64,000 nt of DNA from Vulcanimicrobiota bacterium (GTDB taxonomy: Bacteria > Vulcanimicrobiota > Vulcanimicrobiia > Eremiobacterales > Eremiobacteraceae): positions 192,001 to 256,000 of the forward strand of contig CAWETU010000001.1 of NCBI GenBank assembly GCA_963812135.1, given 5' to 3'. Below are positions 10,907-14,865 of this stretch, one piece after another; positions within the stretch are counted from its first letter, which is position 1, and each line of letters begins with the position of its first letter. A model generated the notes under the pieces. It saw only the letters and a list, made by a program, of their open reading frames with translations. It did not search any database and was not told the origin of the DNA. The translations under genes were made by a program, and so were the position numbers.

Positions 10907-11881
10907 ATGGACCTCGACAAGCTGATCATCTACCGCGGTGGCGAGTTCGTACCGTACGCCGACACGAAGGTCGGCGTCCTTGCGCACGGGCTCAACTATG
11001 GTACCGGATGTTTCGAGGGCATCCGCGGCTACTGGAACGCCAAGGCCGGACAACTCTATTTCTTCAGATTGCTCGAGCACTACGAGCGCCTCGCGTCCTC
11101 TGCCAAACTGCTGTTGATGGATCTGCCAGAGTCGCCCGAACGGTTGTGCGCGCGCACGGCCGAGCTTGCGCGCCTCAATAACTTCCGGCAGGATCTCTAC
11201 GTCCGGCCGCTGGCCTATAAGAGCGCCGAAGAGATCGGCGTCCGGCTCCACAACGTCTCGCACGAATTCACGATCACGGCCGTCCCTCACAAAGCCTACT
11301 TCGATTCATCGATGGGCCTGCGGGCTTGCATCTCATCGTGGCGGCGCATCGACGACAACGTGGCGCCGGCGCGCGCCAAGCTCACCGGCGTCTACGTCAA
11401 TTCGGCGCTTGCCAAGACCGAAGCAGTCTCGAACGGCTTCGACGAGGCCATCATGCTCAATAAGGAAGGCCACGTCGCCGAGGGCAGCGCGCAGAACATC
11501 ATGATCGTGCGCAACGGAACGGTGATCACGCCGCCGGTGAGCGACGGGATCCTCGAGGGCATCACCAGACGCACTATTATTGAACTATGCCAAAAGGATC
11601 TCAACGTCGAAGTCGTCGAGCGAAGCATCGATCGCAGCGAGCTTTATGTCGCGGATGAGGTGTTTTTGGTAGGGACAGCCGTCGAAGTGACTCCGGTGAT
11701 CGAGGTTGACCACCGCCCGGTCGGCAGTGGCAAGGTCGGCCCGAAGGCTACGAAGCTCCGCGAGATGTACCGCAAAGCCACTGTTGGCGAGCTTTCCGGC
11801 TACCGCCATTGGCTGACCCCAACCTACGATGTCGGCAATAGCGCCAAAATCCACCAGGCGGAAAGAGCGGCAGCTTCCTAG
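10907..11881 (+). CDS. ilvE: Branched-chain amino acid aminotransferase (PLP class IV)
   Basis: LNYGTGCFEGIR, YVRP, AKLTGxY, EGSAQN, LEGITR, GTAVEVTP. Confidence 0.95.
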   Translation: MDLDKLIIYRGGEFVPYADTKVGVLAHGLNYGTGCFEGIRGYWNAKAGQLYFFRLLEHYERLASSAKLLLMDLPESPERLCARTAELARLNNFRQDLYVRPLAYKSAEEIGVRLHNVSHEFTITAVPHKAYFDSSMGLRACISSWRRIDDNVAPARAKLTGVYVNSALAKTEAVSNGFDEAIMLNKEGHVAEGSAQNIMIVRNGTVITPPVSDGILEGITRRTIIELCQKDLNVEVVERSIDRSELYVADEVFLVGTAVEVTPVIEVDHRPVGSGKVGPKATKLREMYRKATVGELSGYRHWLTPTYDVGNSAKIHQAERAAAS

Positions 11882-11933
11882 TTTCTTCCCAGAACGTTCT
11901 TGCGGGAGCTTGTTTGCCCCACCTATAATGAAA

Positions 11934-11949
11934 TGTGAGCAGCGTCACG
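11934..11949. promoter_or_regulatory. CRP/FNR-family-like binding site upstream of the small peptide gene
   Basis: aaaTGTGA-gcagcg-TCACG, a 9/10 match to TGTGA-N6-TCACA. Confidence 0.55.
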
Positions 11950-12181
11950 TCTAAACGCTGTAACAAACGATATCAATTGTTAGTCGCGGTCACTCTTGCG
12001 AAACTGTTTGGCAGAACATATCCAAGACGCGATTTGAATGGTATCGTCGGAACACTTGGGGGGCTGATTCCACATCTTGAGCTTTAGAGAGTCGTAGAAA
12101 ATGCGACCGCACCGCCTGGCAGAGGCGGTGCGATCTAAGGCGTTGTGGCGTCCTCTCCGAGTTCGCAGCTGGAGGCTAACC

Positions 12182-12358
12182 ATGCACGAGCTAGGTGGAT
12201 TCCCTCACGCCTTTTCTTTACACATCGGCTTCTATCTGAGCCAACTCGCTGGTTGGGCACATGAGCTTGAGACGTTGATCACAGCAGGGCCAGCGCACAC
12301 TGCTGAGACTCTCATTACAGCCAACGTGCACACCGCCGAAACGCTGATCACGCAGTAG
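12182..12358 (+). CDS. 58-aa peptide with three tandem HxxETLIT cores (putative signal/precursor peptide)
   Basis: SD GGAGG 6 nt before the ATG; MHELGGFPHAFSLHIGFYLSQLAGW-AHELETLITAGP-AHTAETLITAN-VHTAETLITQ; the repeats are conserved as protein but use different synonymous codons. Confidence 0.8.
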   Translation: MHELGGFPHAFSLHIGFYLSQLAGWAHELETLITAGPAHTAETLITANVHTAETLITQ

Positions 12359-12373
12359 CGACATCGGATTAGC

Positions 12374-13696
12374 CTACGCGATCTCGCGGCACAGCAAGTC
12401 GACAAGAGCTGGGTCGTATTGGACCCCGGCGCGTGCCGCGATGGTGCTTAGAGCTTCTTGTTTGCCAAGAGCCCTAGCGTTGTTATGTCCAGTCAGAAGT
12501 TGTAGGTAGTCGCGGGCGATCGCGATTATGCGCGAAGGCGCGGGGATGCGTGAACCCCGCATTCCATGCGGGTACCCACTGCCGTCGAACGCCTCGCACT
12601 GGTGCTCAACCGCGTAAGAAACATCCTCAGGAATAATCTTGGTAGCCTTGCGTAGGACCTGTGCTCCTAGCATAGGATAACGCAGGGCTTCGCTTTGCTG
12701 GGCCGGCGTTAGATTGACGCCTCCACGCACTTCGGGTCCTAGCTTGCATTTGCCGATCTCGTGGAACTCCGCTGCCCACCCAAGGCTCTCCAATTCAGTT
12801 TTGGACATCTGTATTTTCCGACCGATTTGCATGGCAAGATAGCGTACGTCGCCTGCAAATTGTGCGTCTTCGGGACTCATGAGACCGACGAATTCGCGAA
12901 TCATCTCGTGGAACTGGTTCGCCACGAACTCACGCTCGTCACGGGCTTCAACTGCTTGAATAATACGCTCGAACATTCTCGTATGGGCTACGACGTAGTA
13001 AAAGACGATGGCGCCAAGAATCCCGCCGAACGTGTACATTCCGGCTAAGAGATACGCCCATAGCGCTGCAACGAATCCGGCTCTCCAGTACCGCACAAAC
13101 GAAGCAGGCTGCCCGAGAATCGCGAATCCGGTGATCACGAGCCCGTTGTTTACAGTCTGCCAGACCATCCCAATGCCGACGATCCCGACGAACACCAGGA
13201 TAGTGGAAAGAAAATGAGGCGCGTGAGGAATGATTGCCGACACCGCGGAGTAGCTGTAGATCATCGCGTAGATCGCGAGCACTGTGATCCCAAGTTGCCC
13301 GGCCAATGCGTTCACAGCCGCTCCAAGCGGACGGCCTGCCTCCCTCAATCGGACGTGAACCGCACTGAGGCCTATGATCCCTAATGGTAGAGCCCACCAG
13401 CCGATGGTAGCCGCAGCGGCCGCCAGAATCGCAGCGACGGGAGCGTGGACCGCCCGGAAGCTCTCTTGCGGGCGTTCATTTAGCGCGAGAAAAACAGCGA
13501 CGACGGCAACAGTAAAGAGCGTCATTGGCGAAAAGAAATCGAAGTGCGGCGGAGCTACCTTAAGCAGCACCGCGCCAGCCCCTAACAACGCCCAGTAATA
13601 GGCTGCTTTGACTCCCTGGCGCCACGCGACTACGTCTCGTGTTTGAACGCCAGCTGTGCCGATCCGATCGAGTTGCGCCTGCCCTGCCATGGCCAT
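12374..13696 (-). CDS. Multi-TM sensor with a degenerate HD-GYP domain
   Basis: About 7-8 hydrophobic segments, then HEIGK (for HDIGK), HP-like YPMLG, EHQCEAFDGSGYPHG, SRIIAIARDY and GVQYDP. The start could be 13696 or 13690. Confidence 0.88.
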   Translation of the reverse strand: MAMAGQAQLDRIGTAGVQTRDVVAWRQGVKAAYYWALLGAGAVLLKVAPPHFDFFSPMTLFTVAVVAVFLALNERPQESFRAVHAPVAAILAAAAATIGWWALPLGIIGLSAVHVRLREAGRPLGAAVNALAGQLGITVLAIYAMIYSYSAVSAIIPHAPHFLSTILVFVGIVGIGMVWQTVNNGLVITGFAILGQPASFVRYWRAGFVAALWAYLLAGMYTFGGILGAIVFYYVVAHTRMFERIIQAVEARDEREFVANQFHEMIREFVGLMSPEDAQFAGDVRYLAMQIGRKIQMSKTELESLGWAAEFHEIGKCKLGPEVRGGVNLTPAQQSEALRYPMLGAQVLRKATKIIPEDVSYAVEHQCEAFDGSGYPHGMRGSRIPAPSRIIAIARDYLQLLTGHNNARALGKQEALSTIAARAGVQYDPALVDLLCREIA

Positions 13697-13796
13697 GACG
13701 CTCACCAGAACCTTTCGTCGGTACGCTACGCCCGGATAACGAACGGTCACACGAACGTTAAATGGGCTCGCGACCCTGTGTATAGTTTATCGAACA

Positions 13797-13854
13797 TGTG
13801 ACCCGCGTCCCCGCATGATTGTGACGCGGCTAACACAGTATGACGCAAGTCACG
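13797..13854. promoter_or_regulatory. Three tandem CRP/FNR-like sites upstream of the HD-GYP gene
   Basis: TGTGA-N6-TCCCC (13797), TGTGA-N6-TAACA (13820), TATGA-N6-TCACG (13839). Confidence 0.5.
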
Positions 13855-13887
13855 CACATATGTTCGACGAACGGACTTTGTGTATAA

Positions 13888-14865
13888 CTAATTTGAGGGT
13901 GAAGGGTCGGGGCTCGCCATCAGGTCATCAGGGCTCGAGGTCGGCTGGGCTTGAGGAGCCGCATCAGTTTCCGCAGCGAGGAAAGTGTCGTAGGTGGCCT
14001 TCGAGGCGCGCCGGATGAAACGGGCCCCGTCATCGAGGTCCTCGAGGTGGGTCGTGATCACGCAGATGATGTAGGGCGACCCCTCGAGGTTGACAATGCC
14101 GACGTCGTTGAGCGTGTCGTGCAGCGTCCCCGTCTTGTGTTCCACGACGACGCCCCTGGGGAGCGGCTTCGGCAGCAGATCGTTATGCCGCTGGCCGGCC
14201 AAGATCGAAAGCATCAGGTCGCTCGCGGTTTCATTCACCAGCCTGCGTGCGGCGATCATGGAGAGCAGCCGCATCATATCGTTGGTGCTCGTGCGCAGCG
14301 TCCGAATGCTGCGATCGGACGCGTGAATGCTGTCGCCGAGCCGCGTCTGCGTTAACCCAAGCCCGTCCATCGTCGCGTTGATGTTCTGCCGACCGACCAG
14401 CCGGATCAGCATATTCGTCGCGGTGTTGTCGCTGTTCGCGATCATGATACGGACGAGGTTGAGGACCGAGAAGCGCATGCCGGCGTCCATGTCGCACAAC
14501 GCGCCATATCCGCAGTCTCTATCTTGCGGCAACAGCGTCACCTGGCGTTCGAGCCCGAAACGGCCGAGCCATACTTGACGCATGACCTCGACCATCACCG
14601 CGAGTTTGATGACGCTCGCAGCCGGTAGGTTCTCATCGCCGTTGATGTCGATCGGCGTCTGGCCGTCCGCGTCAGAGACAGTGATTGCCACTAATCCGGG
14701 GGTGTCATTCGCGAGGCGACGCAATTGCGGTTCGAGCACATGCAGGCGCACTTCGAGCGCGGTCCGCGGTGAACCAACGACCTGCAGATCTGAACCGGTC
14801 GACGCACTGCTGACGGCAGCAACCAGTGCCGCCGCGATAAGCACTGCCAAGAATGCGAAACGCAT
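13888..14865 (-). CDS. Secreted serine hydrolase, class A beta-lactamase-related
   Basis: Signal peptide; ASVIK (SxxK), SDN and HKTG motifs. Confidence 0.9.
   Translation of the reverse strand: MRFAFLAVLIAAALVAAVSSASTGSDLQVVGSPRTALEVRLHVLEPQLRRLANDTPGLVAITVSDADGQTPIDINGDENLPAASVIKLAVMVEVMRQVWLGRFGLERQVTLLPQDRDCGYGALCDMDAGMRFSVLNLVRIMIANSDNTATNMLIRLVGRQNINATMDGLGLTQTRLGDSIHASDRSIRTLRTSTNDMMRLLSMIAARRLVNETASDLMLSILAGQRHNDLLPKPLPRGVVVEHKTGTLHDTLNDVGIVNLEGSPYIICVITTHLEDLDDGARFIRRASKATYDTFLAAETDAAPQAQPTSSPDDLMASPDPSPSN

Follow-up and report, generated by a model that had tools for sequence, protein, structure and literature searches.

Background

To our knowledge, the bacterial peptide signals described so far have TPR regulators or histidine kinases as their receptors, and come mostly from Bacillota. 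Among streptococcal SHP/Rgg pairs, which belong to the RRNPP systems, the mature SHPs begin at a conserved Asp or Glu and are re-imported, and the shp genes of group III are convergent with the receptor gene, according to the account in PMC3679016. The Phr genes of the Rap-Phr systems are described in PMC5199041 as duplicating their signal motif internally and moving between lineages. On the side of possible receptors, the MASE9-HD-GYP proteins TM1467 and HdgA are treated in a preprint (bioRxiv 10.1101/2021.11.05.467447) that proposes ligand binding within the membrane; the same source describes HnoD of Shewanella oneidensis as an HD-GYP protein with no c-di-GMP hydrolysis of its own, which acts as an inhibitor of another phosphodiesterase. 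The 5TMR kinases have an NxR motif at the loop that joins core helices 1 and 2, and it is towards this loop that the cavity of the S-component fold opens, as described in PMC11109136.

Here we describe a small peptide gene and a convergent gene for a membrane protein, found in the window (the whole stretch of 64,000 nucleotides that was analysed), which likely constitute a previously undescribed strain-specific peptide signal and its receptor. The literature searched, in which subscription journals are mostly uncovered, gave no account of this pair, nor of any membrane HD-GYP or MASE9 protein with a peptide as its ligand. The features of the locus are collected in Table 1.

Table 1. Features of the peptide-partner locus (window coordinates)
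Feature	Position	Strand	Remarks
Likely promoter: weak -35 (11900-11905), 18-nt spacer, TATAAT (11924-11929)	11900..11929	+	not called by a consensus scan
Palindrome TGTGA-N6-TCACA, presumed CRP/FNR-type	11934..11949		one mismatch; immediately downstream of the -10
9-bp hairpin with UGGCAG loop	12108..12132		within the long 5' leader; resembles a terminator on the minus strand
Ribosome-binding site GGAGG	12171..12175	+	purine-rich upstream site in the 26 loci of the family search
Peptide precursor gene, 58 aa	12182..12358	+	open reading frame and orthologues
Leader, 29 aa	12182..12268	+	His-rich, moderately hydrophobic, free of Lys/Arg
Core 1 (ETLIT)	12269..12283	+	codon 30
Core 2 (ETLIT)	12305..12319	+	codon 42
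Core 3 (ETLIT)	12338..12352	+	codon 53
Partner membrane protein, 441 aa from ATG	12374..13696	-	open frame reaches GTG at 13750
Degenerate HD-GYP domain	12377..12874	-	HD reads HE, HHE reads QCE
Membrane domain, 8 helical segments	12980..13642	-	predicted S-component fold, MASE9-like
Second box, presumed CRP-type	13820..13835		one mismatch; upstream of the partner gene

The peptide gene

The first-pass annotation proposed a real 58-aa gene carrying three ETLIT cores, and both the open reading frame with its stop and upstream GGAGG and the three copies, with exactly the codons quoted there, were confirmed. ETLIT occurs three times only in the six-frame translation of the 2.79-Mb genome, always within this gene; any 5-mer appeared in triplicate in one of 200,000 residue shuffles of the peptide, and among 1,559 small ATG-initiated open reading frames with a ribosome site no other has a triple 5-mer of at least four different residues. 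A plain DNA repeat is excluded by the synonymous divergence between the core copies. All 11 orthologue pairs have a pN/pS of 0.08-0.64, and the gene is under purifying selection, so that the proposed selection at the protein level is borne out by these ratios, by the relatives and by the divergent codons of the cores. Homologues preserving the reading frame, which that annotation had named as a check, came from a profile search in which 8,000 candidates were scored and 98 protein clusters of the peptide recovered. A single-sequence search recovered the peptide itself alone; it has no match in NCBIfam, none in Pfam bar one weak chance hit, and an unconvincing best score of 0.77 in the ESM Atlas.

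The upstream neighbour of the peptide gene encodes a branched-chain aminotransferase (ilvE, 10907-11881), the stop codons of the peptide gene and the convergent partner are 15 nt apart, and beyond the partner lie genes for a class A beta-lactamase-like protein, an arginase and a phosphate transporter. The G+C content is 53-59% over 11800-14000 of the window, as against about 64% genome-wide.

Anatomy of the peptide family

We compared 44 distinct peptides from loci and the 98 clusters. The comparison replaces HxxETLIT, originally taken as the conserved unit, by a leader of 25-36 residues, His-rich and moderately amphipathic, followed by an Asp or Glu that opens a mostly hydrophobic tail. An acidic residue follows the leader in 98 of 98 clusters, a count that reflects a parse which itself searches for one and that does not imply cleavage. 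It is at this residue, rather than at the His first proposed, that the core boundary falls: His lies 3 or 4 residues ahead of the acid in 72/98 clusters, being usual in relatives and not obligatory. For the peptide of the window, the separation of the cores stands with spacer lengths corrected to 7 and 6 residues, His included, and the leader is moderately hydrophobic and free of a basic n-region as annotated, measuring 29 aa to the first Glu instead of about 25. The leader is conserved family-wide. Lys and Arg are absent from the first 8 residues in all 43 peptides inspected of the 44 distinct ones, and neither a Sec signal nor a basic PptAB-type leader is recognisable. The cores, by comparison, fall into 37 distinct five-residue types among the 98 clusters; position 2 is Thr or Ser in 77 of these, and no residue is invariant apart from the first acid.

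The number of cores varies from one to four, with a single core in most members, three in the genus of the window and four in one metagenome locus (L100). Peptides of the g5 type, named after a second genus, have one, two or three cores, each unit beginning at Asp, and judging from the sequences the repeats expanded independently in two genera. The repeat period is 7 to 13 residues across the family, and later cores usually restore the His-x-x-acid junction of the first. Comparing the core copies within genes gives 53 synonymous differences over 69 sites and 8 non-synonymous ones over 219, the latter count being biased low by the choice of cores through a protein pattern; the synonymous divergence nonetheless shows that the copies are old and have been kept alike by selection.

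A leader followed by repeated cores is the layout of some RiPP precursors, and an orphan RiPP precursor had been the alternative offered initially. The modifying enzymes would then be encoded elsewhere and the membrane protein would be a sensor or an immunity factor, and the frequent Thr or Ser at core position 2 would suit such a product as well as the layout does. Several observations make this reading very improbable: the partner gene is constant; the neighbours scanned (ilvE, the class A beta-lactamase-like protein, the arginase, the phosphate transporter and a permease) include no recognised co-encoded modifying enzyme or dedicated leader peptidase; neither a C39 exporter nor AgrB (PF04647) was found in the genome; and beyond the first acid the core has no invariant residue.

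The partner membrane protein

Pfam assigns the partner to HD families alone in 21 of 21 sequences, HD_5 being matched in every one. An HD-GYP fold is supported by Foldseek matches of the predicted model to 9rbz, 4mcw and 4r8z (E about 1e-6), and a GYP-type motif is present. The catalytic HD is kept in 0/21 partners, as is HHE, and in an alignment to V-cGAP3 further metal ligands are seen to be replaced. On the strength of these motifs the partner appears to be a pseudo-phosphodiesterase that has lost its catalytic residues. It shares the degenerate HD and HHE motifs with HnoD as described in the preprint, and differs in having a membrane domain where HnoD has a receiver domain as input.

Predicted models and the hydrophobicity profile indicate eight segments in the membrane, a short hairpin among them, joined to the HD-GYP domain. 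This arrangement is that of the MASE9-HD-GYP proteins as the same preprint describes them, and the ESM feature score of the membrane domain to MASE9 clusters is 0.93. Unlike those proteins, the partner has lost its catalytic motifs, and the MASE9 profile (PF20972) matches none of the 21 partners and nothing else in the genome, in which DUF5317 was likewise not found. The profile of the partner's own membrane domain has only 20 matches among 1.84 billion representatives. The model of this domain (pLDDT 86) superposes on chains of ECF transporters, which fill the top 14 rows of the comparison with Z from 13.1 to 7.8 (at best an rmsd of 3.3 A over 180 aligned residues), the next unrelated row having Z 7.6; a Foldseek search with the membrane domain gave nothing at E 0.001 and weak ECF-type matches. 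As the comparison concerns a helical bundle and a predicted model, the proposed S-component fold carries moderate weight. The partner shares with the 5TMR-LYT sensor kinases and the ECF S-components, as these are presented in PMC11109136, a six-helix core with an extra N-terminal helix and an Arg motif that is conserved where core helices 1 and 2 are linked, here a Glu-Arg pair conserved in 19/21 sequences at the loop. It departs from them in its HD-GYP output, in its proposed peptide ligand, and in an extra C-terminal hydrophobic segment which, together with the charge bias, predicts the opposite orientation. The charge bias is seen in all 21 sequences: 8-11 Lys or Arg lie in the N-terminus and loops L1, L3 and L5, as against 0-4 on the opposite side, and the cavity is on this account likely to face the cytoplasm; residues 182-220 are also predicted as one helix, by which the canonical orientation would be possible. 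Conserved residues of the partner include Arg57, Arg187, Gln116 and Gln162 in the numbering of alignment A1.

Outside the window, another gene for a membrane HD-GYP-like protein, which converges on one resembling a histidine kinase gene, was seen at G000:C1:1050843-1051973 and in L007; no small peptide was seen alongside it.

Distribution of the pair

The partner has orthologues in five of six relatives within the genus, each with a tail-to-tail three-core peptide. The search across the family covered 32 genomes, of which 25 yielded 26 loci that include the 3' end of the partner, and a tail-to-tail peptide is present at all 26. Two of the 32 genomes hold fragments alone, G025 appearing solely as such a fragment, and five are without an orthologue: three have no ilvE match, one has a contig ending in ilvE, and the fifth is G008. 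This genome, which is 97% complete, keeps ilvE; no receptor open reading frame lies within 1.5 kb downstream of that gene, the peptide profile has no match, and neither member of the pair was found. Since G008 retains ilvE without receptor or peptide, ilvE is unlikely to be a component of the system. Downstream of ilvE in the same genome (L060:2477-3347) there is a twice-repeated stretch where relatives carry peptide and partner. Among 34 metagenome loci, 24 were parsed, all with a peptide; of the remaining 10, five have a peptide, and the other five have the partner cut off or unparsed, or are L090, where no peptide passed the filter.

The partner (E 1e-25) and the peptide profile match the same 20 of 301 genomes of the phylum, all of one family, Eremiobacteraceae by the names on the records; the profile was built from those same loci, and the informative part is that no further genome matched. 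Two unpublished genomes, G015 and G031, supply rows in alignments A1-A4, are counted in the family and 301-genome tallies and enter one pN/pS pair, and one locus in the family-wide comparison of cores and receptors carries a peptide identical to that of G015; no conclusion depends on these two genomes alone.

The system occupies a single chromosomal site, beside ilvE and, where the contig extends far enough, a serine-hydrolase gene. A second ilvE-peptide-partner locus in G001 (L008, contig C32) lies on a contig of 2.9 kb and has a peptide like those of genus g5; it is probably misbinned and was not counted as a paralogue. The partner is frameshifted in L006 and L009 (G005), L029 (G024) and L031 (G020), all in few-contig assemblies, and sequencing errors are the likely cause. 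In genus g5 (L020, L021, L023, L025) the partner is extended C-terminally, and the coding region of this extension reaches into the 3' end of the oppositely oriented peptide gene.

Co-variation of core and proposed receptor

Within the genus, G003 and G005 have different cores and flanking proteins that are 93% (IlvE) and 94% identical, and their membrane domains are 54% identical; G001 and G004, again with different cores, have flanking proteins at 91% (IlvE) and 92% and membrane domains at 59%. The more distant G000 and G005 share a core, and have IlvE at 88% and membrane domains at 79%. Within the membrane domain the steepest fall is that of the first helix, whose identity is 77% where the core is shared and 36% where it differs. 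The C-terminal HD part, which was compared with core differences within the six-genome set of the genus, is less divergent than the membrane domain and 69-82% alike in all 15 pairs. The flanks of G003 and G005 are 76-95% identical as DNA; identity is 47-80% between 13675 and 12197 and recovers to 92% immediately ahead of the peptide, so the dip is confined to the coding regions of partner and peptide. The flank pairings fail the AU test for the membrane domain (p 7e-6 and 1e-4) and for the HD part (p 0.001 and 0.014), as does the receptor pairing for both flanks. The receptor tree of the genus is thus discordant with the flanking genes, in the manner of pherotype cassettes. In nearly all loci the gene next upstream of the partner encodes a beta-lactamase2-family protein with a hydrophobic N-terminus (window 13888-14865, minus strand); this gene tracks the flank tree and not the cassette.

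The comparison was extended family-wide with the 26 of 33 loci that could be parsed, from which 67 close pairs were drawn at an IlvE identity of at least 78%. Eight same-core close pairs, one of them a duplicate, have membrane domains 73-100% identical, and close pairs with at least three core differences have 42-61%; in one close pair IlvE is 99% and the membrane domain 57% identical. Over the 67 close pairs, which are not independent, membrane divergence goes with differences in the core (rho -0.70) and not with how alike the leaders are (rho 0.07); over all pairs, membrane similarity tracks the leader (partial r 0.49) above the core (0.16). Linkage within one exchanged cassette can produce such co-variation without binding.

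Rapid paired divergence, exchange and strict co-presence are also what one would expect of a pair resembling toxin-antitoxin or guard systems, in which the peptide would hold the membrane protein off, its loss upon phage attack or translation arrest would be the trigger, and diversification would reflect an arms race. We regard this as improbable, given the fixed single chromosomal position beside ilvE, the separate promoters on opposite strands, and an HD-GYP fold that points to c-di-GMP circuitry.

Regulatory region

The promoter in Table 1 was not called by a consensus scan; a -10-like hexamer stands, by eye, just ahead of the palindrome in most loci. The palindrome, which we take to be of the CRP type, is present with at most one mismatch in 25 of 26 regions upstream of the peptide. 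The genome has 27 sites at this tolerance, including the one ahead of the partner gene, and it encodes two CRP-family proteins above cut-off. A LexA-like palindrome upstream of the partner (window 13853-13866) has a similar form in most relatives; it is one mismatch from the Gram-positive consensus, and it is weak in that 299 sites with one mismatch occur genome-wide.

The non-coding leader region preceding the peptide gene is 230-300 nt long across loci. In the window it is conserved over 11945-12181 and, within the genus, holds two hairpins with a UGGCAG loop; a hairpin of this kind is also met in several other genera. The hairpin of Table 1 is paired in 6/6 genus members with one compensatory pair, a weak signal whose score is reached by 23 of 500 shuffles; a consensus fold for the leader across the family was not obtained, the UGGCAG hairpin alone recurring. 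Rfam gave nothing at gathering level for the window region and 12 related loci, from which we conclude that no known riboswitch, the c-di-GMP types included, is present there. This region is possibly a site for an RNA-binding protein or a new cis-regulatory RNA.

Comparison with RRNPP and agr systems

The propeptide-receptor arrangement of RRNPP systems, with a propeptide of 10-100 aa adjoining the receptor gene, is found here (58 aa, 15 nt between stops). The receptor is a membrane domain with HD-GYP instead of a cytoplasmic TPR protein, and the precursor has neither a Sec leader nor a basic leader as defined for the PptAB type in PMC10075063. The system as proposed would work like RRNPP signalling, yet lies outside RRNPP by receptor and leader. 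With SHP/Rgg, as described in PMC3679016, it shares the short precursor, the convergent receptor gene of group III and, by prediction, a C-terminal, hydrophobic mature part with an acid first that would work as a ligand inside the cell after re-import; it differs in an integral membrane receptor with a dead HD-GYP domain in place of a TPR transcription factor, in a leader without basic residues, in multi-core forms and in a likely diderm host. It resembles Rap-Phr, in the account of PMC5199041, in that the signal motif is duplicated within the gene, specificity has diverged and the pair moves laterally; Sec signal peptide and TPR receptor are absent here, and each genome has one locus. An agr-type system (AgrBD/AgrC), characterised by AgrB, a histidine kinase as receptor and a conserved Cys or Ser, does not fit, as no PF04647 match was found and the partner is not a kinase.

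A proposed mechanism

We consider the core to be probably the ligand of the partner. For the system as a whole we favour, at about an even chance of being correct, a pheromone resembling SHP and Phr that would leave the cell after cleavage, be taken up again and be detected by the partner pseudo-phosphodiesterase. The leader would dock the precursor on the inner membrane, and a protease of the RseP/Eep type may cut ahead of each acidic residue. The released cores would be exported and then returned by Opp-type uptake to the inward cavity of the partner, where the Asp or Glu of the core may pair with a conserved Arg. Binding in the membrane cavity would alter c-di-GMP signalling, the dead HD-GYP domain possibly acting through c-di-GMP binding or on a GGDEF/EAL enzyme, as HnoD does, and a CRP-family regulator may govern both promoters. 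Searches of the genome gave M50 proteases, 17 matches to SBP_bac_5 and 6 to GGDEF; the M50 and Opp-type genes lend weak support, because they are common. An Omp85 gene indicates an outer membrane, and a cultured member of the phylum is described in PMC9758169 as having a Gram-negative envelope; the host is likely diderm.

Passage of the core outside the cell is a weaker step than its role as ligand, because the leader is neither Sec-like nor basic, C39 and AgrB were not found in the genome, and the cavity is predicted to open inwards. With a cytoplasmic cavity, a signal from outside would have to be exported and re-imported or else cross the bilayer. These same points can be read in favour of a peptide that never leaves the cell: left uncut, or cut and retained, with its leader on the cytoplasmic leaflet, it would plug the inward cavity of the partner with its core and report an internal state, for instance by way of the CRP-type promoter or its own turnover, additional cores adding avidity. 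The family-wide conservation of the leader and the lack of a recognised dedicated protease or exporter among the neighbours scanned are consistent with this alternative. On this reading a repertoire of 37 core types is hard to account for, and it explains poorly the tree conflict, the exchange and the presence of very different partners in near-identical backgrounds such as the close pair with IlvE at 99%; a variable repeat period is ill suited to a bridging role, and the usual re-creation of the His-x-x-acid junction in later cores is what a cleavage site would lead one to expect. On balance we find the retained peptide rather unlikely.

The exported pheromone, if taken together with the predicted structure of the partner, raises the tentative prospect, to which we give somewhat less than an even chance, of a new class of signalling systems: polymorphic multi-copy pheromones that are read on the cytoplasmic side by a receptor with an inverted S-component fold and a dead HD-GYP domain, with dozens of pherotypes passing among the lineages of a diderm family from soil.

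Implications

If true, this proposal would tie peptide quorum sensing directly to c-di-GMP, and would suggest that orphan MASE9-like sensors are peptide receptors. The dozens of natural cognate and non-cognate combinations of peptide and receptor make the question of a ligand for such orphan sensors testable with synthetic 5-9-mers. It would also reveal kin-specific signalling in a mostly uncultured soil lineage.
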